DNA from: a virus | Strand: one strand, 5' to 3' | Virus record (IMG/VR): IMGVR_UViG_3300039098_000035 | Location: 1-64,000 of that record | DNA: 64,000 nucleotides | Part shown: in pieces, positions 25,115-51,669 of the stretch | Layout of the letters: every line of letters begins with the position of its first letter | Numbering within the stretch: the stretch's first letter is position 1 | Position numbers and translations under genes: made by a program | The notes under the pieces: model-generated | Told to the model about the DNA's origin: nothing | Databases searched by the model: none | What the model saw: the letters and a program-made list of their open reading frames with translations, nothing else

Positions 25115-25238
25115 CGAAGTAGTAACGTTATTTAAAGAAGCGGGTATGCCTATACCAGATGCATACTTCGATGTAACAGAGGATGGTACTGAGATAGTAA
25201 TCATCCAGAAAGAGGAGGAAGTAAATGGAAAAACTTAA
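25107..25238 (+). CDS. 43-aa acidic protein
   Basis: Read manually: MKDEVVTLFKEAGMPIPDAYFDVTEDG... Confidence 0.55.
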   Translation: MKDEVVTLFKEAGMPIPDAYFDVTEDGTEIVIIQKEEEVNGKT

Positions 25239-26148
25239 CTTTACACCTATTGTACAGTACAAGAAACCGATGAAGAGTTTATTGTTCGGACCCCAACATG
25301 CAGGTAAGACTTGGAATAGCTTAGATTTAGCGGCAGGTATTGTTATGGAAGAACGTGGATACAAAGATATTAAAAAAGTATGGAAACATATAGCTGTATT
25401 AGACACAGAGAACAGACGTGCTATTTTAGTACTGCGTAAGAAAGGTGCCATGGATGTTAACTATCAAGAAATTAAACCACCGTTTAATAGTAATAAAGTT
25501 GTTGAACTTCAGCAACAGTTAGATCTTTTAGATAACATTGATGTTATTATACATGATTCATTGACACACTACTGGGCTAAAAAGGGTGGAGTGTTAGATG
25601 AGAAGGCACAAAAAGATAAACAAGGTGGTAACTCATACACTAACTGGCAAGAGTATAGTGCTAAGTTTAATGATATGATTGATACTTTATTACAATCTCC
25701 TAAACATATTATTATTACTGCCCGTTCAAAGAATGATGTAGTAATGGAAGAGAATCATAAGGGTAAGATGGCGCCTGTAACATATGGATTAAAGCCTATG
25801 TTGCGTGACGATATTGAATATGATTTTGATATGGTATTTAATGTGGATAAAGATACACATAGTCTTATCGTAGATAAAGGTGTGCCTGATATAATGCCTA
25901 TCTATTCTAATGTAACTGTAGATACTGGTAGAGAACTATATCAACTGTTTAATGCAGGTACTGTAATCCAATCACGTACAATGGATCACATTAAAGAAAG
26001 TATTAAATCTTTAACACGCGCAAATAATATGGTAACCTTTGTAATGCAGAAACTACAAGGTAAAAAATTAGATGAATTAGATATTGATGAATTAATTACC
26101 ATAGAAAAAATATTGATTGATGAAGTAAAGAAACAACAACTTAAATAA
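25225..26148 (+). CDS. Sak4-like (AAA_24) ssDNA-annealing ATPase
   Basis: LLFGPQHAGKT, VLDTEN, IIHDSLTHYW, HIIITARSK, IEYDFD. Confidence 0.85.
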   Translation: MEKLNFTPIVQYKKPMKSLLFGPQHAGKTWNSLDLAAGIVMEERGYKDIKKVWKHIAVLDTENRRAILVLRKKGAMDVNYQEIKPPFNSNKVVELQQQLDLLDNIDVIIHDSLTHYWAKKGGVLDEKAQKDKQGGNSYTNWQEYSAKFNDMIDTLLQSPKHIIITARSKNDVVMEENHKGKMAPVTYGLKPMLRDDIEYDFDMVFNVDKDTHSLIVDKGVPDIMPIYSNVTVDTGRELYQLFNAGTVIQSRTMDHIKESIKSLTRANNMVTFVMQKLQGKKLDELDIDELITIEKILIDEVKKQQLK

Positions 26149-26508: not shown

Positions 26509-26550
26509 AAATAACCCCTTACTCTTATGAGTAGGGGGTTTATTTTTTTT
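26509..26550. terminator. Terminator between the convergent arms, probably bidirectional
   Basis: AACCCCTTACTC-ttat-GAGTAGGGGTT with an A-rich left flank and T run on the right. Confidence 0.8.
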
Positions 26551-29500
26551 TATCTCATTGCTTGTGACTGACGATGACGTACGTACTGTTTCCATTGTAT
26601 GTCTTTAACTAATCCTATTGGATCTACCTTAGGTTGTCGCATACGTCCGTACTTATTAAACCAGTTCTTATATATATTTTCATATCGTTTGTATCTACCG
26701 TTATTGTTTCTATACTTATAAGGAGTGTATTTATTGTTTCCTTCACTGTAATTATATAAGAAGTTAAACGTATTTCCTAGTGTACGTTCTCTCTGTTGTA
26801 CAGGTTTACGTACCCCAGGAGTAGGTGGTGTTACATTACGAGGCCCTAGTGTATTAGCTGACCTTGTAAGTACGCCTACTGTAGCTAAATTCTTCATAGC
26901 TTCTCCTACATCTTTAGTTGTTGCTAATGTGTGCAGAGATCTAAGTATTGGATTACGTCTTTGTTCTATAGTAGCTGCAGTGTTATTGAGAATGTTCTGT
27001 ACATCGTATAGTCCAAATCCTAAACGAAGTCCTACGCCTCCTCCTACAGGTAGCCAACCATTCATAATTTGAAACTGTTCATACTGATCATATTGTCCAT
27101 CTTCATCTGCATATTGTCCATATACGCCATCAACTATATCACTGATTAATCTATTGTATGATGGATCAAGCATTCTATCTAACCAGTTATCAACTGTACG
27201 TATTGGGAAAGATAGGTATGGTATATCTGCAAGTAGCTGTGTTTCTACAGGTGTACGTTGTCCATAATTAAACCAACGTTTTAAAGATCTGTTAACTGTT
27301 TCATTAAAAGAGTATCCATATAGGTATCTATCAAATAGAAACCCACCTATACGTGCAGTATTTTCAATGGTCTCATTCATGTTCGCGTATAATTTATAAG
27401 GTTGGAATGCAAGTTCAGCTAATTTATTTTCAAAAGTACGTGAAGCATCGTTAACTTCTTTTGAAACTTCTTCATATGTTTTATCTGTTGTATTGTTGAA
27501 GTTGTCTGATACACGTTTCTCTACAATACGTCTTAAGTATGTGTAGTGTTCTTGTTTGTATGTATCTATCTGTGCATTTGTTTGCATGAATGCAGAAATT
27601 TCAAATAGAATATGTTCTACATCATTGTATATTGGTTTATCTTTTTTACCTTTGTCTTTGTTATATTTTTCCATCCATTTTTTTATACGTTTACGGGGTT
27701 TGTTTGGTGTGCTAGGGTCGAACATTAAGGAATCATGTAGTGTTAAGTATTCTGCAAAGTTAATGTTAAGTATAAATGCAGCACTGTCTTTAATATCTTT
27801 ACGTCCATCTAATACTTGTAGTTTTTCTTTAGCTTTAAACCTAAATGTAGGGTCTTCTATTTTCTCAATTTCTTTTAAGTTTTTAAATCCAACAATATCT
27901 TTAACTACAAAATTCATAAGAGTGTCTAAACTTTTTAATACTTTAGTAGCTCTGTCAGACCTGTGCTTAATACGCGATTTAACATTGTTGAGTTTTTTAA
28001 CACCTTCAGTGTAGCTGTATATTCTATTGCGAATATCTACTAAATTTTTAACTAATGTAATAGCATCATTGTGGGTAATACTACCGTGGTTGTTTTTAAT
28101 ACGAGTAAATACTTGTTGCATTTCTTCAAATTTACTTTTGATATCTATCTGTACTGTTAATCTTTCTTCATATACATCTTGGTAAAGTTTATATAGTTGT
28201 CCAGTAAGCCCTGTAATTCTAAGTATTTCTGGAGCTTTTGTTATGGTACCGTATAATCCTTCTTGGGTGTATAGTTCACTGTATATTTGTGTCCATGTAT
28301 CCATGTAGTTACGGAACAGAAAGCCTAGTGATAGTCTCATCATAAGTTTTTGAGAATACTGTAACGAAGATACTAAATCAGGTATCATACCTTTACCTTC
28401 TAATCTTGCAGGTTTGTATGCAATATCATATGAACTCATAAAATCATCTAAGGTTACAAATCCTATACTTAATTCTTCTGTTGTATTATTATTCTTCATA
28501 TGATCTTCCATCATCTTTAATACTCTAGCAAAATCTTCAGGAGTTTTAATATTAATTTCTTTTAATGTAGGTGACACATCATCTTTAAAATCTATACCGT
28601 TAAGGTCTACTGTTTTATAACGCTTACCGTTAATTTTAATACCGTCTTCTTTAGTTATACCTTTGTTTAAATCTTTCACATACTTTATAATGTCTTCAAA
28701 CGAATCGAAGCGAGTAGTTTTTCTATGTTTATATATATTCCAAGGCATCATCTTAGCCCAGTTAGATTTGTTATCATACTCTGTAATGTTTTTCCTTAGT
28801 TGATCTCCAAGATTTCTTACTAAAGTTTCATTATCATAGGCATCCATTACCACTGTTAACCTTAAGAACTTTCGGTTTCCTCTGTAGTAATCGAATAATT
28901 TATCCCAGTCATAGGTGTCGTCATCGTTTTTAAACAATGAAGCCATTGTTAAGAATGGTGTTTGATACTTTTGCATGTTCATTAAGTTTGTATCTTTAAT
29001 TTTTTGTACATCTTTACTGGTAAACTCTGGGTCATCTCCTATATATTTAGGTGCGTTTTCATAAAGATCGAATATAGTTCTACCTTTAGGGTCGTGTAGT
29101 AGGAACGTACCTTTACTGAAACTTTTACTGAATGCTGCTTTAGCTGTAATCTCTTTCATCTTTTTAATCTTACTTCTAACTTCTTTTTCTTTAGCGTTAA
29201 GGTCAGCTATGTGTTTAGTAACGTCTTTATTTTTATCAATGTAAGCTATAGCTTTGTCTTTATGTGTAACGTCATCTTTGATGTGTATTATTTTACCACG
29301 TATGTTAAGTAATTCTGCTGATAATTCTTTTAACTCTTGCTCATTTTGTTTATACATAGTATATGCTGTCGTTATTTCTCTTATTGAATTTCCTACATTA
29401 TGATAACTAAATTTATTACGGTTAGCTATTTTAATTTTGATATCGTTAGATGATAACTTTTTAATTCCGTCATCATATTGCTCTGCTTTGTCACCATGTA

Positions 29501-32500
29501 TAGAGCGTAGTGTGCTGAACTCTGTCTTAACATTCTCAAGCAAGTCATCTAATGTCTCTTGGTTACGTATACTTTTAATACCTTTTTCTTCTAGGTATGT
29601 AGTAAATAATTTCTGTTCTAATGGTGTACTTTCGTTATACATTTTAGTATAGTTAGCTACGTTATTACGGGCATCACTACCTGTGCTTAGGTTGGATAAC
29701 ATTTCTTGTGAGTAATGTGCAGGTACTTTTATACTGTTATTACTTACTGTATTAGTTTTTCTAGTTACATTACCTTCAAGATCCATAGTTAAATATTCGT
29801 AGTCTACATCTTTATTGTTTAATAGAAAATCTTTAGCTGCTTGGTGTTCATCCCCAAGTAATGCATCTAATCTAGTACGTTCATGTTTGCTTTTAAGCGT
29901 AATTAACTGTGCAAATAATCCATATCCTTTAGCTATAAATGGAATCTTATCTTTAGATAATGCAGCATGGTTTGTTAAATGGTACGTATCGTTAACACTA
30001 CGGTATAGACTATATGATGTAGTAAGTACTCTAAGTACTCTATATGCAGGTATGTTATATGTTAACAACGTCTGCATGTATTCATTAACTGTCTTAACTG
30101 TACCTCTTACCTTAATTTTTTTGTCCAAGATTTGTTTGATAGGTAGCTCAGCATTGAATGCTTTAGTAATTGCTTCAAGTACATCGGATACTTCATAATA
30201 TATACTGTCAGCAAAATGGGCATCATTAAAGAACTCAGCCTTAGCGTATTCATTAATACGTTTAGTTAAGTTTATTCTTGCATCAGTTTCATTGTTGTAA
30301 TAATCTTTACGTTGTGTGTTAGACATATCTTTATTCAATGCCTCACGTCTAGCTTTAACAACTTCATCTGATATACGTACACCATTTTTTTCAAATGGAT
30401 TTGAATCCATAGCTATTGCTAATGACCTTGAATGGTTTCTATCTACACCTGTTGTAACTTTACGTATACTTTCTTCAGCAGTTTTCGCCCCTACTTTTTT
30501 ATTATAGTTGTTATAGAATACAGTCTTATCGATGTCACGTCCAGCATGTTTAGCTAGACCAATGATAGTACTTGCATCCTCTGATTGTACCCCTAATTTT
30601 CTACGATCAATAATAATTTGATCGAGATAGTTGTCCCCTGCTTTTTTAATAAATTTTTTAACATTTTTATCTTTAGTAAAATTTTCAGCAACCTTAATGT
30701 TCTTACCAAAGTAAAATACATCGATGAACATTTTATCTGATTCAGATAATGTAACGGTGCCATGGTCCTTATGGTCTTCAGTTATCTTTTCTAACATGTC
30801 CTTGTAGAATACATTTAGATCTTTAGGGTAGTACTTGTTGAAGTGTGCTACTATACCTATCTGATCTGTGCTGTCGTATACATCTTTAAGACTTGTAAGT
30901 TCTTCTGTTACTCTAACAGATTCATTGATAGTGGTGTGGATATCTCCTAATACTTTAATCATATCATCTGCCCACATATCTTTGTATGTTTCAGTGTTGC
31001 CACTGGTGTAGTAGTCTGCTATGTTTCCTATTTCTTTCTTAGCTAATGATATAAACTTAGACTTGTTCATCTTCTTAGCTTTGGCTATATGCTTAGCACT
31101 TAATAGTTTTGTTACTAACGATCTAGTAGTTAAGTTACCATTACTACCTCTAAATGGATCCCATACATTACCCTCAGGGTCTCTATTCAAGCTGTTGTAT
31201 CTACTTAATATTGATGCAGCTACACGGTTCTTTCTGTTACCACCGAACAGGTTGATACCACGTTTAGATGTTTGGATACGTTCTACTGTACCAAGCACAC
31301 TATCAGTGTATACCTTACTGTTTGCTACCTTAAGGAATAATTCCTTATACTTATCAGCATTAACCATGATGTTCTCTATACCAACCTCTCTAATTGTAGC
31401 ATTGTCTGCTTTAGATAGGTGTAATGTTTGATACTTAAAGTCTTCACTACTTACGTGCTTAGATATGTCATACTTACCTGCACCTACTAACTTATCAAAT
31501 ATATAATACTTCGATGCTATATCTAATATCTTACTGCGTTTAAACATAGCGGCAACCTTAGCAGGGTTGTCATAGTCTTCTATTTTAAACCCATCTATAG
31601 TATTGGCACCTTTTGTTAGCTTACGTATTGCTACGTTCAAGAAGAACTTTCTATTATCGTTGTTCCATTTAATGTTAGCTTTACTTACGTCAGCATCATC
31701 GATATCTTTTTGAATACTGTCGAACGTACTACCGTAAATTTCTCCCCAAGTATAGTGCGTTCTAATTTCTTTAAACGTGTGCTTACCTACTGATGAGTAA
31801 CGTAGATCTACATTGTCAAATGTTATACGCTTGTTACTTGTTTGCATTTTTTTATTAATTTTCTCTATGTACCCGTGATCATAGTAGTTATCTTCAGTAG
31901 CATCTAAGTTCTTAAACAAAGTTTTTTGTGTAACACCTGGTTCAATTTCTTTATGGCTATCCACTGCTAACATACCGATAGTATCACCATCATTATCTCC
32001 ACCTATTAATTTGTATAGGTAAGCATTAGCTTCTACTGCATGGTGTGTATGGTACCCTATAACTTTAAGCATAGGTACTGCATTATAATCCTGTACTGGT
32101 GAACGTGCAGCTACAACCCAACCATACTTCTGTCCGAAGTTTTCAAATGTAAACACTCCATCTTTCTCAGTGTACATTGTGTGGTCTACGCCATTAATCT
32201 TGTCGTTCGTTACACCTATACTGTTAAGGTAATCAATAAATTTTTTCTTATTCTTAACTGTTGCTGTAGTACCATCATTAGACACTAAGTCCTGTGCTTT
32301 AGCAGACTTAATATCGAATCCATTGATGAGCTTTTTCCATATGGTCTTGTCTACTTTACCATACTCTAAGAATCCACCTTTTAAATCTTGGAATGCTTCC
32401 CATCCATCTTTAGATGTACGTATTTCTCCTTGACCTAACCTTAAGTTAGCAAGTAACTGTTGACGTACACCATCATGTCTTCTATATATAGACTCATACA

Positions 32501-35500
32501 TTACACCTGTGTTACCATGTATAATTTCAAGTGCTTTATTTCTTGCACGATTCTCCATCTCTTCTAACATAACTTCTATTTGTTCTATCTCTCTAGGGTC
32601 TTTAAGAGTTTCTAATTTATTTTTATACAGTAGATATGTTTCAATATCATCCACTAGTATATTATTGAATAGGTCTTTAATATTTCCTATGGTCTCTGCT
32701 ACGTTGTACTCCCCCTTGGTATCTTTGACACCATGTACTGCTAATACTTTTTTGAATCCATAGTGATAGATGTTAGAGTATGTGCTTAATCCTTTATAAT
32801 CTCCACCTAACAAAGCTTTCTGCCAATCTACATCTTTAGTTTCCATTACATCTGTCACAGAAGGAGACATAGATACACCACCACGTACGCTACCTTTGAT
32901 ATCTTTAACTGATAGCTTAATTTCTCCTGCTTCAGTTAACTCTGTTTTAGTAGACATGTGATCGGCAGTATGATCGGCATCCATAATTACATACAGCCCA
33001 CCTTTATACATGTTCATACCTTTAAAATTATATTCTCCTACACTATTAGGTTTACTTATGTCTACAAACTCTACTTTTAAATCTTCTTTAAATGTTATAT
33101 CAATAAGGCTTCGCCATTTACCTTTAACACCTTTGAATAGTTCAGAAAGAACTACATCATAGTCAGTACCAGGATCTAGAATAAGTTTACCTTTAGTTAC
33201 ATTGAACATTTTCTTAAGTTTAGCATTGTACTGTTTAAGTGCTGGTACTTTTTTAGCTCCCGTCATATGCATACGTATTGTATCTAATGCCTGGTCTAGC
33301 ATAGCACCGTATGCGCCCCTTTCTTGGATAGAAGATTTACTACCTATTATAGATACACCGAATTTAGCTCTTAGTCCTTCTACATACTTAACTCCACCTT
33401 TGAATCCATATAAACCTAACCAAGTTTTATTACCTTCATCCCAGCCTAATGCACGTGCATCTGCTGAATCTATTAGTAATGTATCTTCAAATGCATCAGG
33501 ATGATCTATGAATCCTACTTGCAGATTAAGTCCTATCTTATGTAGTACGTCATCTTCATACATATCAAATTGTTTTTGAGTAAGGATGTTAGGTGTGTAT
33601 GTATTAACTTGTTTAACTACCTTATCATCCTTGTATGTCTCTAATAATAGCTCAGTAAGTTTCTTTTTCTTTGTTCCTTTTTGTTTGTTTACGTAATCTG
33701 TTATGTGCTCCTCGAAAGTTTTAGAAGGATCAGCATCTTCTAAGACATATGTTTCATTAATTGCACCTATAGGTGTATAGTTTAAGTGCATCTTAGATAA
33801 CGACAGTATACTACGTATCGCATTCGTATTGAATGTGTGTAATTTATCTGCGTTAGCTTGTGTTCTAATATTTGTTGCAGACCCTGCACTACCTTCAGCA
33901 GATAGCTCAAGGTTCATACCTAATTCATATGCACGTTTTGCTGTCCACTTAGCTATGTAGTTAGTAGAATAATCTGCAGGTATTAAGTTCAAATGTTTAC
34001 CGGGATCGTTAGAAGAAAACTTAGACATAACTGTATCCACTATACCACGGTATACTTTGTGTATATCTCCTGCATTTTCCTTACGCTTAGCGTATTGAAT
34101 TACATCTAGGTAACTATAGAACCTATGACGTAATAACTTGCTTAGATCGTATTTAACAAGGCTTGTATCTTTCATGTCTTTATCATTAACAGTACCTTCA
34201 AGTGCAGCTTTCATAGCTTTAGCTTGGTCTGCTTCTTCTTTATAGTACTTGAATGCACCTTTCTTCTGCATACTCTTCAATGTTTCTACAAGTTTGTTGA
34301 TTGATTCATACGCATCATCAATACCATTCTCAGTAAAGATATTTTCTTTTCTTAGTCCTGTAAGTCCGCGTACTGTCTTACCATCTTTGTCTTTATGGAT
34401 GTATAATGTCTTCAATAATTTCTTAAGTTCGCTAGGTTTAATCTTACGCTCTATAACTAAAGGTTTTTTATATATTAAATCTGTATCAGTCTCAGTGTAG
34501 TAGTACGCAAGTTTAACCGTACCTTTTGTAGGGTACTTAGTGTTATATGTGTACTGTTGTACGTATGTATTACCAAACTTATCAGGTGGAGTAGGTACGG
34601 ATACAGTAATAATGTTTCCATTATCTGTTTCATGTACAGTGTTGAATACTACATCAGGATTTAATCCAATACCACTCTTGTTTATACCCTCATTGTAATC
34701 GTTGTATGCACGTTCAACACGTTTAACATTCATGTCTTTAATAAATTGTTTATCTTTACGTTTAGTTGCTGCGGCTTTTAAACCTTCGTAATCTTCTATG
34801 GTTATATCGTTAGCTCTACCTTGTAGTATGTTAAAAATGTCTTCATATTCAATCTCTTTCTTAACATTTGATATAACTTCTACTTTACTTAGGATCTCAT
34901 TAAATTTATTTGTAATACTCTTTAGTGATGCGTTGTAACTCTTATCATCACCAGGTGTTTTGTTTTTAAGTATATCTATACTATGTTCATAATGTGCTAT
35001 GTCTTTTTGTATGGCTATAGCCACCATTGATGATATGTTCCTAGTCTCTAGTTTACCTACAGTTGTGTCCTTAGTGTTAAGTACTTCTAATACTTTATGG
35101 ATTCCTCCTGTTGTACTGGTATTAGTTAATAATGTATTGAATACTGTGTTACCTTGCCATTTAGGCACTGCCGTTAATAGGCTGTCGTACATACCCTTAA
35201 GCTCCACTGTAATATCTTTATCAGTAAGATCGATCTTGTTGTTTGCTTTAGGTAAGAACCTATGTATGTATTTGTTCCAACTTTTTTGTAGGTCTTTTAC
35301 ACGGATGTCTTTTATAGTTTTTATATCCTTTATAACATCTGTAAGTTTAGTTTCTAACAGCGTTGTAAGTTCCTTACTCACTGTGATGTCTGAACCTTTA
35401 TTAATTTTAGTAACTAACTTAGACATATTAGTTATTTTGTCAGTGTATCCTTTGATAAGTTTATTGATTGCTGCCTCTGACTTAGCTTTAATTACTTCAG

Positions 35501-38500
35501 GCTCTAATGTTTTCTCAAGCATCGCCTTAACTTTAGGACTTTCCAATACTTTCTTAACATCAGCTTCGTTATCGATGTCTGTAGTCTTAAGTATATTAGC
35601 AATCTCTGTTAGATCCTTGATAGCTATGTTCATACCACGTACTTGCTCATCCATCTGCATTTGAATAAGTCCAAGGTTAGTTGTATGTGTACGGGCTAGG
35701 TCCCTTTTACTTATCTCAAGTGCAAGCTCTCTATTTACTGCTATGTTTACATCATATGTCATAGTATCTGTGAAGTTCTGTATAACTCTAGTAGCACGTT
35801 GGATATCTCTAATGTACTCTTCTTTAAGATTTTCAATGTCTACTATTTTTGTAGTGATTTCACTGATACGATCTTCAAGAACTACTGCAGTATCTAATAG
35901 ATCTTTTTGTTCTGCTCTTAATTGTGTAGATCGTTCACCAGGTGCACTAGATGCAGGACTTTTAAGATACTCTATGTGTTGTAGTATTTGTTTTAACTTA
36001 ACTTCAAAGTTTGTTATCATCTTAGCTGGTGCTAGTGTAGAATTATTCTCTTTAGAAATACCGAGCGCATCATTAACAGTACCTACAACAGTGTTGTGGT
36101 AACTTTCATACGCTGTTTGTGTGTTGTAGTCTAGTATAGTTTCTACGCTTAGTATGTGTAGATATTCTTTCTCTGATTTTTCTAATAATTCTTCAGTAAC
36201 CCACTTCTCTATCTCTTTATACTGCTCTAATTTAGAGTGTATTGAGAACCCTTTTGTAAAGTATTGTACTAGCTCATGCTTGATACTTTCTTTACTTACA
36301 AGTGTATCTGCGTCTACATAATTAAAGAACAGTTCATTGATGTAGTCTATCTGTGAGTTAACCCCAGTAAATAACGCTTCTTTAACTTCTACGTTTTGTA
36401 TAATACTTAGAGATTCTTGTGTATCCTTTATAACTTTAAGAGACATTATCTTAAGTATTTCGCTATAGAACTTATCAATCATATCAAGTTCATTTGCTGT
36501 TACTTCCATACCTCTATTGTATTTCTTGCGTACCTCTTGTATTGCTTTATGGTACTGCTCTATAAGCTTACGCTCTTTACCCATGTTAACTAGGTTATCT
36601 TTACTAGTCCAGTCTAATCCAGTAGCTCTTAGCTTAGCTTCTATGGTATCTGCATCCATACTGTTGATCGCTTTGTGGTACATGTTATTTAATAATGTGT
36701 TTGCTATACGCTGTATGAATTTATCATAGTACACGAAGTCAAAGCTCTCACCATTGTGTGCAATGATAGGTGTATTCTTAGACGCTGCATTCATTTCATC
36801 TACAAATGTTTTAACAAATAGTAAGTCATTACCTTGACCTTTAACTTTTTCAATAGTCATGGCTGTAATTGCATCTACATCTGCTCTTACTGCAGTAGGA
36901 TTTTCCTTGATAGCTATTTTCCACTGTTGCTCATAGAAATCCTCAATTTGTTTTGATTTAGTTATTAGTATAGCTCCATCAGGTTGCATCAGTTCTTCTG
37001 TACCAGCTACAAACATTTGATTACTTATGTATTGGTTGACGATTTTTATTACAGGGCTTCCCTTATGCATAACTTGTTTAACTAATGTCATTTGATATGG
37101 TGTAGGTACCCCGTAATTATTCTTAATTGTTTCCATATCTAAAACGATGAATGCTTCAGGTATTTTTCTACCTAGTTTTTTCATTTGTGCAACGTAGTTT
37201 AATCTTGTAATGATGGCATCCATGATAGGGTTATGTAATTCTACTTTGTTAGATACACTAGCATCCTTTATTAATTCTTCTAATGTTTCTTTACCACCCT
37301 TGAATAGTCCTGAAGTTCTATTGATAACATCTTGTAAAACTTGCTCTTTTATTAGGGCAACCTCTTCAGGTGTCTCGCCTTTCTTGAATCCATACAAGTT
37401 CATGTATGTACCGAGGTTACTATTACTGTGAGGTTTCTCAAGTAAACGTGCTTCAACTAGTTTATCATATGAATCTTTATACCCCTGTGCTTCCACACTA
37501 AGTTCATCAATTTCTCCTTGAATTTTCTCAGTCTTAGCTATGTTACCTTTAGTGTATGTATAGTAACTTGCTTGTCTAAGTCTTGCTTTATCTTTAAGAA
37601 CTTTAGCTTCTTTAATTTTTGTGCGACTGGCTACTAGTGTTTCATTCATAGTTTCGATGTCACTATCAGAGAGGTATGTTACTACATCCATAGTATTTAT
37701 AGTAGGATTATCTATTTTAATTTCATTAGACGCTTCCATCAATAATTTCTTAACTGATGTAGGCTTCGCTTTATCTAAGGCTTCTACTATTTTATTATTA
37801 TTCTCCAGTGCTGCACGTGTTTTACTTATATTAGCTTTAAGTTTCTCTAACGATACTACATCTTTCCTAACTTTAGCATTGTGTACTTTATCAATACTAA
37901 AGTCTAAACGCCCATCAATGTATGTATCTACATCTGTAGGAAGTTCTTCTGATTTAGTGTATGTATACCCTGGCTTGTACTTAATCATGTTGTTTAAATC
38001 TTTAACAGTCTTAGCAAGGAGGGTACTTGTTTTAAGATGCTTGCTTTTCTTAATAGCATTCTCTCTTAAGCTATTAGCTTTCATATCTGATAATTTAGAA
38101 CGTTCGATCTTCATCTTACTTGCGAATGTATCAACCGCTATGTTCGCATGTACTTTAATAAGTTTAGTCTTATATTCATCTTCATGTTTCTCCATGTCAG
38201 GTTTAGGTGTACGAATTAATGTTCTAGTACTTGCTTGTAATGCCAACACTTTAGCATCTATTATGTTTTCATAGGCAGCACCATCCATAGTTATACCTGC
38301 TAATAATTTCAATGAAGCATATTGTGAATCTAGCTGAGCTTCAACACGATCTTTAAATTTAGTAGTAGTTTCCAATATCTCTGTGATATCCCTCTTAGTT
38401 AGCTTGCCTACAGTTTCTGTTTCAAATACATTTTTTTTAGCCGTAGTAATATTATCTTTGTATTTTTTATCTATGCTGTATATGAATCTATTTATAATTG

Positions 38501-41500
38501 CGAATTGGTTTTTATCTAATGTTGCACCTTTTAAATCTGCTATACCTTGGAACCCTGCTAGGTATGCGTCTAATCCATCAATACGTTTGTTTGTTATGTC
38601 TTCAGATTTTTTTAAACCTTTGTAATGATGTATCCACTTAAGTGTATTACCTTTTGCACTTATGATCTTAGGGGTAGCCTCTAGATCTCTATCAATAATA
38701 TCAATACTGTTCTCTATGAACTCATACCATTTCTTATATTTAGCTACTGATGTTATCTGTAGTATTGCTAATTCATTTTTGAATGTATTGAACGTATCTT
38801 TAGCTGTTACAAATTTACTTGAACGTACACGTCTAAACAGGATGCCTTCATCGGATTGAATCAGGGTATCTCGTTTAAGTTCTAGTGCTTTTCTTCTATC
38901 ATACTCTTTAAGTATCCCTATATCCTTCTTAGCACGTACACCATCTACTTCTTTTTGTGCGGCTAAAGTTTTATTACGTACGAATGTTTCAGTATCTTCA
39001 ATGAATTCTTTTATTAGTGTTGGGTTGTTCATGAATATTTTTTGTAAGTATTCTTGCTTTTTGTTACGTCTATCTTCTAATAGTTTAATATAACTTTCTT
39101 CAAGATCTTCAACTGCTTTAGTAGTGGCTGCTACATTATCTTCAACCTCTTTAAGTTTCTCTTCAGCAACAGTAGTATCACTAAGTGCGAACTTAAAACT
39201 ACTCTTAAGTCCACCTTGAGAACTTACTATACGTTTTTTAATTGTTTCAAGTTCTGCCATTTTACGCTCAGTGTTAGTGTAGTCTATAGCTAAAGGCGTT
39301 TCTTCTATACGGATGCTATCATCAAATGATTGTGCTATTAACATAGTGTCTTCTGTTTGTGCATTTGTTATAGATAGGTCATTAAGTAATATCATCTTAA
39401 GATCTTTAGTAGCTTCAATTATTTTTTCAGCTTCTTTACGTTCTGTTGGTGTCATAGCTGCTAATGATTCTTTAGGGTACATTTTGTTTACAAGTTTTTG
39501 TACATCCTGGACCCCACTTAACATAGTAGTTATGTTATTAATATCTTGTTTAGCTAACCTACTTTTACGTCTTAAATGTTTTTTAATGTATGTAAACATA
39601 CGTTCTTGTCTATCAGCGAACTCTGCTTTACCTACATTATATTTATTAACAATAATATAACCTAGTACCCCGCGTATGAACCCTTCTTTAACGTTGTTTG
39701 CTAAGAATCCTTCACTCTCAAACTTGTTAAGAATCCCTTTAAGTGAAGCATCAAGTCCTTTGATACGTGCAGTTTCATGTTTAGGTATTAGACTTATATA
39801 CCTACCAAGTTCTTCCTTGTATGCGCCTATAAGATTGTTGTCTGCTTTCAATACTTGAAAGGCTATACCAATATCTTGCATACGGATGAAATCTTTTTCT
39901 TTAAAATCTTTACGCATGTGTCTAGTAAAATCTGTAAACAGTTCACGTAGTTCATTGTATACTTTGTTCTTAGACTGTACTTGTGTTACATCATCTGCAT
40001 AGTCTTCATCTATGATATCAAAACTAACATCTGCTAATGCATTGTTTAGGTCATGTTGTATCTTAGACATAGGTGACACTGAGTTTTGCTTAGACATTAC
40101 GTTAGAATATATTCTTCTTTGTATATTACGTGTTACTTGATTCATTTTTGTTTCTGCAGTTAAGATATATTTAGGATCTATTCCTATTACTTCATTGACT
40201 GTATCAGTCTTAGGTATGCGTACCATCTTAAGCTTATCATTCATACTATCAGCATAGCTTCTAGCATCATTGATAAAGTTTAGTGAATCGTCAATACTAT
40301 TTATAACGCTGTTATCGAACTTATCTTTTTTATAGTCTCTACCAAGTGCGTTTGTTATTTCAACATCATTAATAGCTCTCATATTACCTTGTACTACTAT
40401 ATCTCTGTATGTATAACGTGCATCTTTAAAGTTCCATTTAGACCCTAGCTCTTTAAATAAGAATTGTATTTTAAGTTCGTTTAAAACTCTAGTAAATGCG
40501 TACATCTTACTAGTTGTTGTGAACTTAGCCTGTATCACAGATACAATACTGTCCATAGTTTTATAATTACGGAATAGGGATTCAACTTCTTCGTATTCTA
40601 AGCCAAACGCACTTAAAAATTTCTTAACTTGTATGCGTTTAGCGTCTGCTTTTAATTTAATACTTTTACCATCCATAGATTTAATGGCGAATAGATAATC
40701 ATGCACAGCTTCTTTAAATATTATATTGTCATCCAGTAGGGATATGCCCATAAGATGGTATACCTCATAGTTATTTTCAAACTTTCTATTTGTATGTTTT
40801 TTACCTGCTCTTAAGATATCGTATGCTTGTTGGAATACGTCACCTTGTACACGTACCCAAGCACCATCGAAGTCTTTATCCTTAAGGTTGTGTTTAGTTA
40901 ATAACTCTGCAATATCGTAGCCTTTGGTAGTCTTCTTAAGGATCTCTATATCAACAAAGAATGCTGTAGCATTACGAACATCTATATCTTTGATACTGTC
41001 TAGGTATTCTTGGATTGATTTGAATCGTGAGGGTACGATCTCTTTCAATGTCTTAGGATCCACAGTGTAGTTCTGTTTATCTTTAAATGTTGTGTATTCT
41101 ACCGCATCTAATAATTCTTTAATAACTATTTGTAAATCTCCATAAGATTCAGGGCTTAAGAAATCTAAAATACCTGCAGGGAATACTTGTTTAGTTATCC
41201 AACTATCCATTGTTACACTCCCTATATTACGGAAGTATTCAGGTCCTTCACTCCTAGCTGTTTTTGTTTTATCTTTTTGTTCTGTTAACAATTTTTGATA
41301 GTACTCATTAAATGTTAGCTTATTGCTTTCAGGTAATTCTGAGTACGCAAAGTTAGCTCTCATAACAAGTTCCATGAATGGTACCTTCTGTATGTTTCTT
41401 AAACTGTAATCTACATATGTATCTATTACTTCACGTTTAAACATATCTATATACTCTTCTACTTTACTTGTGTCTGATGTATCCATACCTTTCATAAAGA

Positions 41501-44500
41501 GTCTTCTAGGATCCCCTACAGTACTTTTAAGTGCAGTGACTATATCTTTTTTAAGACTGTCTGATATTTTAACGTTTACATCAAGTTCTTTAAGTAGGCT
41601 TTCTGTATTTTTAGTGCTGTGCAAGTCTTTAAGTTTCTTAAGACTGTAGTAGTTAATACCTCTAATCTTACCTAGCTTACGTGCGTTTTTATGTGCATTC
41701 TTTTTCTTGTGTCCTGCACGTATAGTTTTATACGTAGATACTAATCTATGCTGTAGTGTAACTCCATCTTTTTTCTTATCGAACTCATCTTGCATTTTAA
41801 TAATAGTTTTAACAGCTTGATTTATTTTATTAGGACCGTAAGGTTTAATATATGCTTTAGCATGTGGAGGCGCTACTTCTAGTAGTGCTTGTTGTCTTTC
41901 ACGCATTTCATCAGGTGTGATGTACCATTCTAGTCCTTCTTTATGCTTGCGTTTTAAAATGTGCATCATGTCTGTATGTAGCTTATGTCCACGTTTAAGC
42001 TTGTGCATGAAATCGTATACAGTATCACGTACATTGTTAAGGTTCCTTAAGAAGTCCTGGTTCAATACATTAGAGAAATCAAATGACATCTCAGATGCAT
42101 TGTACTTAGTCTGCATCTTTTCTAATGCAGTACGGATGTTCTCAAGTAGTGTTTTAGATCCTACAGTAATACCTTTAAGCTCTGCTAGTTTAACGGTATC
42201 GATTTTATCTTCTAGTTTACTAAGGTCAAACAGATCCCCATTAGAATTTCTACGGATGTACTCGTCTTTAAAGAATAGATTAGCTATCACATCGATAGAA
42301 TATTTATCGAACTCAGTGTCAGCTCCTACATACTTCAGGAACTCCATGAAAGCTGCTTCAAGTTCAGCATCTTTTTCTAACTGCTTATATACTGAAGAAC
42401 TATTGAATGCTACATTAGTTAACGTACCTTTATTAATTGCTGTATGTTTCTCTTTTAGTTCGGAGTATTTCAAGAACTCATCTACAGTTTCATCAATGCT
42501 CATTTTCTTTTTCTTAGCTACACTTATAAGTTTGTTTATATCATTGAGGTATTTTTCAATACGTACCTTGCTACCTTTAACATTAATTATATTTGGGTTA
42601 ACTTCACCTAGTATCTTACCGTTTACTACTTTAGTAGTGTACTTGTATACATTAACGTATTTACCTATCTTATGCATTTTAGTAATGTCGCCATGCTCTT
42701 CATCAGTTAATATGAATACTTTACCTATGTTGGCTACACCTTGTGTCTCTCTAATAGTTGCTTTGATTTTATTTATAACTCTTTCTGGGAATACATCTTT
42801 ATTGTCAGTAACGATTGTAATACCATAGTCACTAGCACTGCGTACTTCGAAAGAAGCTCCTTCAAAGGAACCTTTCATTGTTGCTTTTAAATGCGTTGTA
42901 AGTCTATTAGCGTATACTATATCATTCTCATCTATAATGTTCTCACCTATCTCAGTGTTGTAGTTAGGTAACCCTTTAACATTCTTATCATTGACGTTCA
43001 ATTTACCATTGATATCTTTACGTTTAACAACTACATACTTCTTAGACTTAACGTCAAATGCCATAGCATAGTCTTCAAAATCTGTGCTGTATGTGCTGTG
43101 TATGATTGATGATATACTACTTGGGTTTGCTTTAAGGAACTTGAAGAATGGCACAGGATCTTTTAACTTAGCATCCTTAGCTATTTTTTGTATCCTAGTA
43201 TATGCACTGATACGCTCAGTAAGATCTTTAACTTCAGTACCAACTCTTTTAATACGTACTTTGTACTTATCAGGATTCTTTTTAAATCCATCAAGTATTT
43301 TTTTTGAATGTTTTAATCTCTTTTGTAATTTAGTTATGTTTCTATCCAATGCAAAACCTTTAGATACTTGGTGTTTATAAAAGAATATCTCACGGAACAG
43401 TCCTTGTTTAGTTTCTTCAGGCATCTTAGAGCCCATGATATACAATGCAAACAATGCATCAGGATCTTTAGGCTTGGCTACTTGTTTGCCATTAACATCG
43501 ATTGTTTGTATCTTCTTGTTGAGTATATCTTTAGTTGCTTTAGTATACAGCCCTGTAACATTCTCTTTAAGATATTCAGCTATGTTAGCTTTGAAATCTT
43601 TCTGTGCCTTACTACGTTTACGCGTGTTAAGGAATGTATCTAAGGATAGTGATCGTTGGAGATAGTTGTACTGTGGGTCCACAAGTAGATTGTAGTCTTC
43701 TTCAGTACTATCACGTAAGTAAGCTTCCTTAGGGATGTCTACTATATCCTCTATCAATAGGTTTCCATATTTATTAATTAACCCATTGTATTCTATTTCA
43801 ATTCTGTTATTGATGTCTTGTACTACCTTGATATCTTTATTCTTACCTACCCTGATACGTAGGCCATAGATATCTTTTATATTAACATGGTACTCAAGTA
43901 ACATTGTGAACATATTTATTGTTCTGACACCAGTATCAGTCTTAATAGTAAATATTACTTCATCATTCTTAAGTCCATAGTCTGTAACTTTTCCAGGATC
44001 TAACTTAAGTTTACTTGCACGATCTGTTTCAATATATTTATTCAATAGGAACATTACCTGGAATAGTGGAACCTCAAGTTTGTTTATATCTGTATCATTA
44101 TTGAAATCCAGCTTACCGTAGTTCATTATGTCTTTAATTAGTGTATCATACTTAGCGTCCCCTATTATCATAGCCTTTACTACGTCTCTAGCTAGGGTAT
44201 AGTATCTGTCGGACAGTCCTACAATATCTTTTTGTTCATATGCACGTATGGATGCCATGATACTAGATATTTTTTTGTGGGTTCTATTGAAACTGTTAGT
44301 AAGAAGCGCTTCATTAGTCTTAGCTATTGCATCTTTAAAGATGCCCTCATAGACACCTGCTTTAAAGTGTCCATCAGGATCATTGATTAAGTTTTCAATA
44401 AACACATCTATATCTTCTTCTTCAAAGCCTAGGTCTTTATTTAATTGGAAGATATCTAGGTAAGGGCTGTTAGTATGTGTACTCATATATTCTTCTACAG

Positions 44501-47500
44501 AGGTATACATACTTTTATAAAGCATTTCTTTGTATTTAGATTCCTGCTTTTTATTTACTTCTACGTATGTGCTTATTTTTCTACCGCGTTTATAGTTTTC
44601 TGCAAGTACTCTTACTTTGAACGCTTGGTCTACTTCATTGGGGTACCTCTTAAGTCCTACACGGTTTAAGTACTTCCAATCAAATTTAATATTGTCTCCA
44701 ATGTCTAGCATTTGTCCGAACATCTTTATAACATAATCATAATGTCCTTTCGATACACGTCCTTCAACTTTCAGTACCTTGAAATAATCTGTAAGTTTAC
44801 TGATGTCTTTTGTGTTGTGATCTATATACTTAGACGGGACTACACCAAACTCTATAGGTACTACTTTAGTAGTGTACTTGTTACTTAAGATACCCTTAAC
44901 ATACTTCACAGTTTTAGTGGTGCCTTTTCCCCCCACTACTGTACTGTGTTTAATGGATGGTATCAGGTTAAACATATTCTTTTTCTTAATTTTATTTACA
45001 ATAGACGCTTTACTGTTCTCTAGTCTAGTGTCTACTCTACCTTTAATACGTTCCTTACGTGCTTGCTCAAGCTTACGTCTGGATTTTATTTCTTTAAGAG
45101 CTACTGATTTTGTAACAGCACGCTGTTCTACTGCAGTAGCATTATCGTTATGCTTGTTTAAAATATATGCCGCTTCTTCAGTTACACTTCTTGTATTTAG
45201 TAAGTATTTAACTACTGTACCTTCTTTATACGTGTTGATATAGTCTGTCTCCGTGTATACTGCTTTAGTTCCCCTTATTTTTTTAACTTCATTTTTAGTA
45301 GGTATTCTAGGAAGGATCTCACGATCAACATCTGCTGACATAAATAAACTAATGTCTTCTTTAACTACTCTACCTGAATACATATATGATTTAAAGAATT
45401 CATATGTAGGGTTCTTACGCATGAGAGTATTTACAAGATTTATTTCAGCTTGTAAGACATTTTTGAATTCTTCATAAGCATCGGTTCCTTTTTTAGACTG
45501 TAGCAATGTTACAAGTTCTTTATCTGCCTCTGTGAATAATTTAATAGCAGCATTCATCTTGTCTCGGAACAGTGAGTTACCTTTACCATACATTTTACCG
45601 TACACTATTTCTTGTAGCTTAGCTTCAGTTAGGTCCTGTAATTGTACACGTTCAATATGTATTCCATCAGACATCATAATTTTATTTATGTTAGTATATA
45701 TCTTATTAAGTACATCTCCAGAAAGAACTTCAGCTACATTGTCTTCAGTTACAAGGTTAGTTTTGTTTATAAGCTCACGTATAGTATCTATACGTTTCTT
45801 TGCATCCCACTTTCTCCAGTTGGGTTTAGTTATATTTACAGGTACTTTAACAATACCTGCCATTAATAAACTTACATCAGATGTTTTTAATGTTTTGTAT
45901 ATTGCTTTAGTAACCGCTTGTTGTAATGTTGGCCTGTATTCTATATCTATATTTCCTTTTACTTTTAATTTTCCTAGCAAGATTGTTTTAAGTGATGCCC
46001 CTTTTTGGGTTACTCCCTGTGCATCTTCATAGTAGTATGCTGCATCAATACCAAACATAGCTGCTATTTTATCCAGCTCATCTAGTGCTTTCGTATCCTT
46101 ACTGAAGTAATCTTGTAGCAGTTTAGATACATCCATTGTGGCTTCTTTAATTTTTACGTTTGTACCAGGTACCGCTGTAGTTGTGCTTACATTAGTATAT
46201 GCTTTATATACATTAACAAGTCGCAGTAAATTAATAAGTGTTTTGTTTAAATCGGAAGCGGTATCAGACATAACACCATTTGCTGTATGTAAAAGAGATA
46301 ACACTTTATTAACTGCCGTGCTATATTTAGTGTGGTACAAGTAATAAGTAACAGCACTATTTTGTGCCAAGTATTTTTTAAGGTCATCATTTTTAAACCT
46401 TCGTTTAACAACTTCTTCTATTGTTTGTCCCGTGCGTTCAATGGCATCTTTGTATAGTTTTATCTCTTTTTGTATATCTTTTAAAGTGTCCTTATTTACC
46501 CTTACTTTAATACCACTTCCGCTTAAGTATTCAATAGGGGCAAGATCTATAAGGGCTTTGTCCTTTTCATACGTACGTTTTCTTTTTTCAATTAGGCGTT
46601 TAGATTCTTCTATATCTCTGCGTATATCTGCATACTCTTTTTTAACATCCTCACTAAGTAGCTCTGCTTTGTCTGATAGTATTTTGTCTAAGTGCTCATT
46701 CAAGTTTGCAACACGTTTAAACATATCGTCAAGTGTGTCATTACTTTTGTTAACGTCATCTTTATTATTTAATGCCTCTGATATTTGTGGGTTCTTGTAT
46801 ATGGTATCTATATTAGTAATTAATTTTTCTAAGTTAGTTATTGTTTCTGCTTGCATTTTTGTAGATGTGGAAGTACGTCTAGATTCTACCCATTTACCTA
46901 CAGCAAAACGTAACCCTTTTATTGCGGTGGATACAGGGTTCGTTACATGAGTGATAGCAGTAGCCACGGTATCGATAGTGTCCATATGTGCACGCATACC
47001 AGCGTACCTACTGTACATAATTGCTGCGTTTTTAGTATCAATAGTAATATCCATATCTTGTATAAATTTAGCCACTAATGTACTTTCATCAGCTCTATCT
47101 TTATAGACTTCTTTAAGGGCTCCTAATGTTCTAGTAACACCTCGTACAAATAGTCTACTCTCGTCATCAAGATCTTTACGTCCTTTGATACGCTTGTATT
47201 TATTGTATGCTTTTTGGAATGCTGTTTTTTGTGCATCAGATCCTACGTTATATTTAAAAGTACCTTTAGTAAATATTTCATTAAACATTTTTACTATTGC
47301 TTTATACTGTACATCTATATCTATAGTACGGTATTCAGCTTTACCGGTCGCATCTTTAACATTGTTCCCTGTTAAATCCATCAATAGTTTACGGACACCT
47401 TCAGGACCTTCTTTGATATAGCTGTGGACAAGACGTTGCATTTGTGAACGCCTATAATCTGCGCCATATTTATGTGCAAAAATACCGTGGTTATCTACAA

Positions 47501-49836: not shown

Positions 49837-51669
49837 TTATTTAATGTTAGATAGTGGATCGTTTCCACTGTTTTCTAACACATTAGTCTCTAAACTAATT
49901 TTAACTTGTGCTACATCTGTACCGATCCAAGCTGTGCTTGAATGATTAGCTGTAAATACGTAAGGTACGCCTGCATAAAGCACAGTGTCTCCTATTACAT
50001 AATCAACGTCAGTAGCGAATACTGGATAAACACCAGCACCATTAATGAATGGAGATAATGGTACGATAGTGTCAGAGTTGACACCGTCAACACGAAGGAT
50101 CATTTCACCTGCAGTGTTTACTCTATTTGCATCTGATGATGCTGCGTCAGGATTTAAATCATCCATTAACGTATACTCACCAGTTAAGAATTGGTCAGTT
50201 AACGCTGCAAGCTCAGCAAATTTAGGGATACCATATGTAATACAGATTGCTTCAGGACGCTTAATAGCTAATCCAAAACCATCTACTTTAAATCCGATTG
50301 ATTGACGTTGGTCTAAAGGATCCCCAACACCACTTGAACCTAAAGGTTTGATAATCATTTGAGGGGCATCAGAGATACCATCTTGTGCTAATTTCAGCAA
50401 TGCTTCCATACCGAATAAGATTCCTCTATGTACAGGTAATTGCATAAATCCACCTGCATCTATTAATGCATTTACTGCAGCAATGTCAGCAGCTAAGAAA
50501 GTACCATCAGTTGTACCGAACGCAGAAGTTAACGTACTATAACTAACAGTTCTTACACCGTTAACCATCGATACAGTTTTGGTAGATTTTCTTAAAACAA
50601 CTTTACAAGTACCCGCAGCACCACCAACAGATTCGCCAGTGTATACACAGTCTGTATCTTTAACAATAGTTTTAGTAGCTACAGGAATTTCCCACACAAC
50701 GTGGTTTTCTACTGCAGTACCATCATCTAAGTACGAAGTACCTGAGCCAGTTACTTTTGCATGTACTCCACCTGATACAACTACTTCAAACTCTTCATGT
50801 ACATCCATGTAATAAATAGTATCGCCAGATACAGCGTACAATCTAATAACTTCAGTACCATCTGATTTCTCATATACTCCAGGGAACTCAGTGTCAGGAT
50901 AAGCGAACTCATCTAACATTGTAGGAATAAACATTAAATCAAACATTGGGAATGGTTCACCACTACCCCAAAGTTTTCCAGTAGTTTGTTCAAGAGCCAT
51001 GTATTGCTTAACTCTAGGATCATCAATCAAACCATTAATAAATTCTGTACTACAGATGTAGTTGAACTTACCACTGATAGGTTTTACTAACATTCTTTTC
51101 ATTCTTGCAATTAAGAATCTTAAATCATCTAACAATACTTCGTCACCAAATGCAAGATTAGCAAATGATTTAAAGTTTGCAAAGAATTCATTCGGTGATG
51201 CTAACCAAGTTTTTCTTGCATATAATTCTTTTGTTTGGTTGGCAAGGTCACCATAATGTAAAGATCTTTCTGCTACTATTTCTGATATTACAGATAAATT
51301 AATTTTATCAGTATACTCACTCCATCTACCGAACGAGAACACATTCCCAACTTCAATAGTTTCGTAAGCATGTTTATCTGGTGCTGGTGGTACTCCTTCA
51401 CGCAATGGTCTAAGCGTTGGTGTCATACCAGCCCATCTACGGAATCTTGCAACTGTATCCCCTTTACGGATACTTAAATTTTCAGCATATTTTAAATGTA
51501 CAAAGTTCTCTTCACCATATTTTAAAGTGTCAAGTAAGATTGTATTATAAAATTCGCCTGGTTCAAACGCGGCTCTGTATACGCCATCAGCATCATACAG
51601 CATACCTAATACAGTATTTACATTTTGCAAATCATGTAAAGGTAGTAATTCGCCAGTGATTACAGCCAT
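49837..51669 (-). CDS. Major capsid protein, N4-gp56 family, with an internal insertion and C-terminal CBM5/12-like domain
   Basis: LREGVPP, FGRWSEYTD, IIKPLGSSGVGDPLDQRQSIGFK; C-terminal YVIGDTVLYAGVPYVFTANHSS. Confidence 0.9.
   Translation of the reverse strand: MAVITGELLPLHDLQNVNTVLGMLYDADGVYRAAFEPGEFYNTILLDTLKYGEENFVHLKYAENLSIRKGDTVARFRRWAGMTPTLRPLREGVPPAPDKHAYETIEVGNVFSFGRWSEYTDKINLSVISEIVAERSLHYGDLANQTKELYARKTWLASPNEFFANFKSFANLAFGDEVLLDDLRFLIARMKRMLVKPISGKFNYICSTEFINGLIDDPRVKQYMALEQTTGKLWGSGEPFPMFDLMFIPTMLDEFAYPDTEFPGVYEKSDGTEVIRLYAVSGDTIYYMDVHEEFEVVVSGGVHAKVTGSGTSYLDDGTAVENHVVWEIPVATKTIVKDTDCVYTGESVGGAAGTCKVVLRKSTKTVSMVNGVRTVSYSTLTSAFGTTDGTFLAADIAAVNALIDAGGFMQLPVHRGILFGMEALLKLAQDGISDAPQMIIKPLGSSGVGDPLDQRQSIGFKVDGFGLAIKRPEAICITYGIPKFAELAALTDQFLTGEYTLMDDLNPDAASSDANRVNTAGEMILRVDGVNSDTIVPLSPFINGAGVYPVFATDVDYVIGDTVLYAGVPYVFTANHSSTAWIGTDVAQVKISLETNVLENSGNDPLSNIK

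Follow-up and report, generated by a model that had tools for sequence, protein, structure and literature searches.

A predicted single-chain, two-barrel RNA polymerase, probably virion-carried, within a 7,596-residue protein of a metagenomic phage

The giant gene described here lies in the first 64 kb of IMG/VR virus record IMGVR_UViG_3300039098_000035 (81,831 bp, rated 81% complete), a stretch of 64,000 nucleotides that was analysed whole and is referred to below as the window. Our analysis indicates that residues ~5130-6045 of the 7,596-residue protein encoded by this gene are best explained as a single-chain, DNA-dependent RNA polymerase (RNAP) of the two-barrel type that is probably carried in the virion, a reading to which we assign a probability of about 0.75. 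On the predicted models, it is very likely that the region is a genuine polymerase core of the two-barrel kind and that its active site is intact. With a virion-delivered RNAP a phage can begin transcription independently of the host enzyme, and three designs are established, namely the T7-like gp50 of N4, the crAss-like gp66 and the tape-measure-fused gp96 of P23-45.

The protein is encoded by a single open frame of 7,596 codons at 26550..49340 on the minus strand, as given by the open reading frame (ORF) list and its translation; its mass is ~835 kDa, and its gene takes up 28% of the 81.8-kb record. The first-pass annotation of this DNA, made from the sequence alone, had listed nine motifs resembling those of the cellular RNAP subunits, and an exact string search of the translation placed all nine in the proposed order between residues 5283 and 5786, with GGDNDGD exactly at its claimed position:

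AFEDTLLI, residues 5283-5290, 33471-33494, minus strand
GNKTWLGLYGFKG, residues 5303-5315, 33396-33434, minus strand
SSIQERGAYG, residues 5336-5345
GLYVIMDADH, residues 5448-5457
RGGVSM, residues 5486-5491
HGNTG, residues 5608-5612
RRHDGVR, residues 5620-5626
ARSP, residues 5745-5748
GGDNDGD, residues 5780-5786, 31983-32003, minus strand

This order is the one found in the multisubunit beta/beta' enzymes, and two of the spacings are nearly equal to those of E. coli. From ARSP (5745) to GGDNDGD (5780) there are 35 residues, compared with 34 from NRAPTLH (424) to NADFDGD (458) in E. coli beta', and GLYVIMDADH and RGGVSM are ~34 residues apart, compared with 34 from MLKLNH (1232) to GGQRF (1266) in E. 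coli beta. The distance from the FED motif to the first Lys differs sharply: 18 residues separate D5286 from K5305, whereas ~250 lie between D814 and K1065 of E. coli beta. The gap of ~18 residues and the missing flap insert had both been claimed beforehand, and the count and the predicted model agree with this, as the modelled segment between FED and the first Lys is a strand-helix-strand without an inserted domain. The beta'-like pair HGNTG and RRHDGVR fared less evenly, since both strings are present but HGNTG is poorly conserved and the register of RRHDGVR on KRVDYSGR was drawn by eye. Also by eye, the invariant R5626-Q-Q5628-L-L resembles RQNLL (339) of E. coli beta' at least as well, and neither register was backed by any alignment tool used.

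The residues proposed for catalysis are conserved throughout a family of similarly giant proteins. An exhaustive HMMER search with residues 5150-6000 as query returned 29 representatives at E<=1e-3 among 1.84 billion proteins, most of them 7.4-8.0 thousand residues long and the remainder fragments. A word-indexed search gave 28 matches, adding further relatives, and profile scans with the family alignment located 6 IMG/VR loci and 15 metagenome loci. Scanning 185,579 reference genomes with the family alignment gave no match, nor did a scan of viral contigs with the single protein as query. The family is known from metagenomes only, with full-length members of 7.3-8.0 thousand residues; at least 32 relatives exceed 7,000 residues, and shorter relatives (2,051-2,662 residues, on 7-9 kb contigs) are probably truncated. 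The record itself probably derives from a marine sediment metagenome, which is the label of the public sequencing run that contains it, and no RNA sequencing runs containing it are listed.

Conservation was counted over 51 non-redundant sequences of the family, aligned with MAFFT after removal of four duplicates (L004, L013, L009 and L017). Residues D5782, D5784, G5785, D5786, R5746, P5748, Q5750 and D5454 are kept in 51 of 51 sequences and N5783 in 49 of 51, at overall identities to the window's protein of 23-54%. K5305, K5314, G5315 and R5341 occur in all 50 sequences that cover them, one truncated row being gapped there, D5286 in 49 of 49 and E5285 in 40 of 49. The DNDGD catalytic loop that had been read from this one sequence is family-wide, the Asp triad and the Gly being invariant among the homologues and the Asn nearly so.

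Predicted structures place these residues in two double-psi beta-barrels (DPBBs). Two AlphaFold2 models were built from alignments made up of locus sub-ranges and a few whole relatives. Model 1 covers residues 5230-6150 (25 sequences) with a predicted local distance difference test score (pLDDT) of 80.1 and a predicted template modelling score (pTM) of 0.74; model 2 covers residues 4880-6060 (23 sequences) with pLDDT 74.4 and pTM 0.72, reaching pLDDT >=74 from about model residue 250 (residue 5130), with low confidence before it. The models were compared with the PDB by Foldseek, with 48,161 chains by VIA-align and with BFVD, and the results given for Foldseek against the PDB and for VIA-align concern the 50 matches listed for each. 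All 50 Foldseek matches are largest subunits of multisubunit RNAPs (best E 1.1e-3, probability up to 1.0). VIA-align splits the model, with the first half matching second-largest subunits and the second half matching largest subunits; in model 2, residues 178-633 match beta-type subunits and residues 655-1166 match beta'-type subunits.

Among the matches listed for model 2, nine different second-largest subunits score Z 13.4-15.1, among them AR9 7s00_C (Z 15.1, root-mean-square deviation (rmsd) 3.6, 215 aligned), Pol I 4c2m_B (Z 14.7, rmsd 5.7, 345 aligned), Pol IV 7eu0_B (Z 14.7, 358 aligned), Xanthomonas beta 6j9e_C (Z 14.0, 353 aligned) and phiKZ 7ogp_C (Z 14.0). On the beta' side the corresponding scores are 12.5 for 7ob9_A, 12.2 for 9mu7_A, 11.9 for 2pmz_A and 10.5 for 6edt_D. 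Model 1 gives the same division. Its residues 17-282 match RPB2 of African swine fever virus (8q3b_B, Z 12.8, rmsd 3.5, 210 aligned), Pol IV 7eu0_B (Z 11.9), Pol I 4c2m_B (Z 11.7), vaccinia 6rfl_B (Z 11.6) and AR9 7s00_C (Z 11.6), and its residues 392-596 match Pol V NRPE1 8hil_A (Z 9.4, rmsd 2.4, 110 aligned; Z 11.6 with model 2), with barrel rmsd values of 2.2-2.4. Isolated DPBB domains also match the Asp barrel, with 7dww, 7dbo and 7dvc at Z 7.1 and rmsd 2.0-2.1 in model 1 and a range of Z 7.1-8.5, at rmsd 2.0, over the two models. The Z values exceed the background that VIA-align states for non-helical models.

A DPBB with a DxDxD metal-binding loop is therefore predicted at model 1 residues 392-596, which hold the invariant Asp triad, and a second DPBB of the beta/Rpb2 type carries the basic loop with the two Lys residues K5305 and K5314. 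The pTM values of 0.72-0.74 argue for the canonical facing arrangement of the two barrels in the prediction. A single-chain two-barrel module with its beta-like half ahead of its beta'-like half had been anticipated from the motifs, and the models bear this out: with the AlphaFold models compared by Foldseek and VIA-align, each half falls in the expected RNAP subunit class, and pTM is above 0.7 both times. The predicted anatomy is as follows:

31206..33953, minus strand: polymerase module, confidently folded in model 2, residues ~5130-6045
32808..33605, minus strand: beta/Rpb2-like barrel (DPBB-B), residues 5246-5511, placed by model 1 matches and holding FED, the K5305/K5314 loop and R5341
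32481..32807, minus strand: helical connector between the barrels, residues 5512-5620 (helices, model 1 residues 264-390)
31866..32480, minus strand: beta'/Rpb1-like barrel (DPBB-A), residues 5621-5825, with RQQ (R5626, Q5628), RSPVQ at 32091-32105 and DNDGD at 31983-31997
31206..31865, minus strand: post-barrel helical region, residues 5826-6045 (helices, model 1 residues 636-815)

The beta-like match may start somewhat earlier, near residue 5060, where model confidence is low. Matches to largest subunits start at model 1 residues 302-318, which align to chain residues 24-47 in the N-terminal parts of those subunits. At the other end, the post-barrel region closes with a helix of ~47 residues (~5999-6045), the alignments to Rpb1, A190 and beta' extend to model 1 residue 821 and model 2 residue 1166, and K624, R631 and E638 (model 1 numbering) are conserved in this region.

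The closest relatives of the module by predicted structure are the multisubunit beta/beta' (Rpb2/Rpb1) enzymes, including the split non-virion RNAPs of AR9 and phiKZ, which provide the best matches of both halves (Z 13.4-15.1 for the beta type and 10.5-12.5 for the beta' type). It departs from them in being a single chain, with ~985 residues standing in for ~2,750, in having DNDGD as its metal loop where cellular enzymes have DFDGD, and in being embedded in a 7,596-residue protein. Single-chain phage and RNAi polymerases match less well than the multisubunit subunits do, with Z 6-9.5. The best of them is gp96 (8h2n_A, Z 9.5, 255 aligned, rmsd 4.7), whose alignment spans both barrels (model 2 residues 253-1166), followed by QDE-1 7y7p_A (Z 9.0, rmsd 3.6, 210 aligned over model 1 residues 40-592; Z 6.8 with model 2) and P74 gp62, which aligns rigidly over both barrels with Z 8.4 and 7.3. 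Plant RDR2 7w84_A reaches Z 6.3 in VIA-align, and gp66 6vr4_B reaches Z 6.2 with model 1 and is not among the 50 matches listed for model 2. The BFVD matches are mainly giant-virus RNAP subunits, with a few uncharacterised phage proteins and a phi14:2 structural protein at E 0.087. SPbeta YonO, which Chaban et al. also name, is a single-chain two-barrel phage RNAP and is not known to be a virion giant; no YonO chain appears in any structural match list, and no dedicated YonO comparison was made.

A precedent in overall design is gp96 of Thermus phage P23-45 (PDB 8h2m/8h2n), in which a virion RNAP and the tape measure protein form one chain (Chaban et al., bioRxiv 10.1101/2022.12.01.518664). 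It is likewise a single-chain two-barrel enzyme inside a giant virion protein, of 5,002 residues, with the Lys barrel before the Asp barrel; packaging of the protein studied here is something we infer. The two share no sequence similarity, and the structural match to gp96 falls below those to the multisubunit enzymes. The gp96 polymerase is N-terminal and belongs to a long-tailed phage, whereas the present module lies ~70% of the way along its protein, and the terminase and capsid proteins of its phage are nearest to those of podophages. Two clades of two-barrel RNAPs are recognised in the same preprint, one holding the multisubunit enzymes together with some fused derivatives and the other the single-subunit enzymes of phages, plasmids and RNAi.

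The crAss-like gp66 of phi14:2 is a more distant comparison. Its motif is given as DFDID by Drobysheva et al. (bioRxiv 10.1101/2020.03.07.982082), and it is a virion-packaged, ejected single-chain two-barrel RNAP of 2,180 residues (PDB 6vr4) with domains that are mostly unassignable. The giant has DNDGD in place of that DFDID loop, its match to gp66 is weak in both VIA-align and BFVD, and there is no sequence match, so that neither the sequence homology nor the DFDxD loop by which the gp66 family is recognised is found in it. By these comparisons the lineage is a sequence orphan whose model is closest to beta/beta'. The first-pass annotation had proposed a distinct lineage of virion-packaged, ejected RNAPs, and the distinctness stands, in that the lineage is separate in sequence from gp66, QDE-1 and gp96; packaging and ejection are argued from analogy and composition. 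We found no description of the family in the literature, within a search whose reach did not extend to the supplementary lists of '23 RNAP families' (Chaban et al., Drobysheva et al.), which could name it.

Several results weigh against identifying the region as an RNAP. Pfam and PHROGs scans of the whole giant, in three pieces, returned nothing significant, and the only near match was DUF5743 at residues 5894-5989 (E 0.0014, below its cut-off). PF00623 (RNA_pol_Rpb1_2) and PF00562 (RNA_pol_Rpb2_6) have no match at E<=1 in the 81.8-kb record and match 14 of 14 control genomes, so the protein lacks the profile match near the curated cut-off by which Pfam defines cellular-type beta/beta' proteins. 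Searches of PDB sequences, 6vr4 included, with phmmer and the family hidden Markov model (HMM) gave no RNAP match at E<=10. When the family was aligned by hhalign with E. coli RpoC, the sole match was a 24-column segment pairing DNDGD with DFDGD, which is not significant (E 0.29), and the alignment with E. coli RpoB was in the wrong register and likewise not significant. As no sequence method links the region to RNAP, the assignment rests on predicted structure and motifs. The models themselves are less explicit beyond the barrels, where residues 5826-6045 are a candidate bridge-helix/funnel region to which no residue-level assignment of a bridge helix or trigger loop could be given.

Delivery in the virion is a separate part of the reading, and by analogy with N4 we lean modestly towards it. 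The features that bear on it are these:

48084..49079, minus strand: N-terminal Gly/Ala-rich hydrophobic segments of the giant, residues 88-107, 336-361 and 398-419 (Kyte-Doolittle, window 19, threshold 1.5)
25225..26148, plus strand: AAA_24 (Sak4-type) gene (PF13479, E 8.8e-16), which closes the replication arm and converges on the giant gene
49837..51669, minus strand: major capsid protein gene, 610 residues (phrog_1357 major head protein, E 2.1e-9), immediately upstream of the giant gene
49380-49419, minus strand: hairpin resembling a terminator, with which a sigma-70-like promoter match overlaps, ~40 nt upstream of the giant's ATG (consensus scan only)

The giant contains no Cys in 7,596 residues, compared with 49 in 5,552 residues (0.88%) across 16 other ORFs of the window (P ~6e-30); of 32 giant relatives, 13 lack Cys altogether and 19, these included, contain no more than one. 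N4 gp50, gp51 and gp52 likewise have no Cys, with 0 in the 3,500 residues of gp50. The giant gene belongs to the structural strand and is flanked by the capsid gene on one side and by AAA_24, where the replication arm ends, on the other. Its position resembles that of gp50 in N4, where a Sak4-like gene and a single-stranded DNA-binding protein gene are followed by gp50 on the opposite strand and then by the capsid genes. An N4-like gene position and a Cys-free giant protein thus occur together, gp50 being itself giant and Cys-free, and the role proposed for the two proteins is the same. The Cys-free composition and the Gly-rich hydrophobic N-terminus, which is conserved in the family consensus, fit an ejection route.

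The catalytic domains of the two proteins are of different kinds, T7-like in N4 and two-barrel, as predicted, in the giant, which has no similarity to gp50-gp55. Kazmierczak et al. are said to have described the catalytic domain of the N4 virion RNAP as T7-like in 2002. In the part of the polyvalent-protein survey available, the N4 polymerase is likewise T7-like and only N4-type polymerases are reported (Iyer et al. 2017, PMC5512222). BLASTP and phmmer comparisons of N4 gp50 with the giants gave no match; the folded region is two-barrel, and ~6,400 residues of the giant lie outside the models.

Other observations speak against delivery. Comparison of the giant with API480 gp16, 13 N4 virion proteins and 6 API480 proteins gave a single match at E 0.024 and otherwise none, and tblastn against 50,697 deposited phages found no homologue of the polymerase region, the C-terminal 697 residues or the N-terminal 620 residues. 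In favour of delivery, no other polymerase was recognised in the 81.8-kb record by T7-type (PF00940) or Pfam beta/beta' domains; PF00940 also matched no control genome, so its negative says little, and with the record 81% complete another polymerase could lie in the missing part. The promoter match upstream of the giant reads TTGAAA-17-TATACT with an extended TG, and because of such sigma-70-like matches the host polymerase may suffice for some or all genes. In the consensus scan, promoter-like sites numbered 2, with 2.1 expected, and a single terminator-like site was found for an expectation of 0.3.

These points bear most directly on the strongest alternative, which is that the giant holds a genuine two-barrel RNAP that is made in the cell and never packaged, serving middle or late genes or a replication/transcription body as do the enzymes of phiKZ and AR9 and gp64 of P23-45. 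We consider this unlikely, at perhaps one chance in five or six. The best structural matches do include the non-virion subunits AR9 7s00_C (Z 15.1) and phiKZ 7ogp_C (Z 14.0), a sigma-70-like promoter match stands just upstream of the giant gene, and the giant has no similarity to known virion proteins. However, an enzyme confined to the cell would leave unexplained the absence of Cys over 7,596 residues, a trait common to the ejected proteins of N4, as well as the size of 7.6 thousand residues and the hydrophobic Gly-rich N-terminal segments, and the N-terminal and compositional features are joined by an N4-like gene position kept in 5 of 5 relatives. Moreover, the giant gene lies beside the capsid gene on the structural strand, so the host would already have to transcribe the late genes before the enzyme existed.

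Far less probable is a two-barrel core devoted to another polymerisation, whether QDE-1-like RNA-dependent RNA synthesis, primer synthesis on the injected genome or PolD-like DNA synthesis. Template and product specificity are unreadable from a fold, QDE-1 7y7p_A (Z 9.0) and plant RDR2 7w84_A (Z 6.3) are among the structural matches, and the metal loop departs from the cellular consensus in having N, in 49 of 51 sequences, where F would be expected. Yet DNA-dependent multisubunit subunits score Z 12-15 against Z 6.8-9.0 for the RNAi enzymes, and the phage has a family A DNA polymerase and primases of its own; a PolD chain is not among the 50 matches listed in either VIA-align comparison, which does not exclude PolD. 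That the motifs arose by chance or mark a dead relic, the region being a non-catalytic structural part of a giant internal or tail protein, is scarcely credible. No sequence profile recognises the region and AlphaFold models from 23-25 sequences can be wrong, but the proposed catalytic residues are invariant in 49-51 of 51 sequences despite 23-54% overall identity, two independent models both exceed pTM 0.7 and the halves independently match the correct subunit class.

Under the preferred reading of a virion-carried single-chain RNAP, a reduced beta/Rpb2-like half would supply the E5285/D5286 pair, the K5305 and K5314 loop and R5341, and would be joined through the helical connector to a beta'/Rpb1-like half supplying RSPVQ and the Mg-binding triad of D5782, D5784 and D5786. 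The giant protein would be a late product that is packaged in the capsid and is ejected, largely unfolded, along with the DNA, after which the polymerase would transcribe the first phage genes, as N4 gp50, crAss-like gp66 and P23-45 gp96 do. A bolder and more doubtful proposal, which we put forward tentatively, is that a fused, pared-down beta-beta' enzyme from the multisubunit branch, rather than from the QDE-1/gp66/gp96 branch, has come to stand, in a podophage-like lineage, where N4 has its T7-like virion polymerase, in the genome as well as in function. One polypeptide might then unite the membrane-entry, ejection and transcription functions split among N4 gp50, gp51 and gp52, which would make it a third independent 'bring your own polymerase' solution. 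The family would add a sequence-orphan design to the virion-RNAP candidates, with a predicted structure nearer to cellular beta/beta' than those of other one-chain phage enzymes. As a natural beta-beta' fusion of ~985 residues without the flap, it could serve as a compact model for the two-barrel core and its evolution, and annotation pipelines miss polymerases of this kind entirely.

The first-pass annotation had called the capsid protein N4-gp56-type, a description that found no support: N4 gp56, gp59 and gp68 showed no similarity by BLASTP to the capsid, portal and terminase proteins encoded in the window (best E 0.18, capsid against gp56). Among deposited phages, the nearest capsid and terminase proteins come from two Paenibacillus podophages, SV21 and API480 (29-30% identity), and from the group of Bacillus phage Page. 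The terminase matches include no crAss-like or Bacteroidota phages among 93 records. The order AAA_24, giant, capsid is kept in 5 of 5 related IMG/VR records, in all of which the capsid protein is 62-65% identical. Across related IMG/VR records the polymerase region of the giant is 23-39% identical, compared with 62-65% for the capsid protein, and judged by these identities the giant gene evolves much faster than the capsid gene.

The plus-strand replication arm encodes an AAA_5 ATPase, primases, an SNF2 helicase, a family A polymerase, an exonuclease, a topoisomerase-like protein and AAA_24. Two genes of the record are of primase type, a D5/DUF5906-type primase-helicase at 4054-5670 (minus strand) and a Toprim DnaG-like primase at 17435-18382 (plus strand). 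Where the gene arms converge, a plus-strand terminator-like hairpin lies at 26513-26540, just before the giant's stop codon. Upstream of the capsid gene on the structural strand is a second giant gene:

53345-65014 of the record, minus strand (53345-64000 in the window and continuing beyond): tail fibre gene, 3,889 residues (phrog_18345, E 1.9e-39)

The tail fibre ends at its C-terminus in a Peptidase_S74 intramolecular chaperone (PF13884, E 2.7e-5), and its gene is followed further on by the other structural genes and the terminase. The two giant genes account jointly for ~42% of the 81.8-kb record.

Other parts of the polymerase-bearing giant offer a few further observations. A DnaQ/DEDD-like motif pair (DMET..., ...HNG..FD) at residues ~4060-4210 (~36700-37170, minus strand) is conserved in the family consensus; this region has no PDB sequence match and no hhalign match to E. 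coli DnaQ, and the likeness is at motif level only. One relative of 7,801 residues (P0013) carries a precomputed Pfam label for intein splicing (PF14890), and as no insert specific to it was located this candidate was dropped. A language model returned no look-alikes of the N-terminus. The C-terminal 697 residues (26553-28643, minus strand) are among the most conserved stretches of the family consensus, and the look-alikes that a language model lists for them are viral clusters without a name; one cluster of the polyvalent-protein domain LPD38, at rank 15 (score 0.94), is a lead only; hmmscan found no PF18857 (LPD38) match at E<=1 in residues 5001-7596. Proteins of 762-861 residues that match the C-terminal part alone occur on contigs of 76-79 kb and could be split forms or frameshifts.

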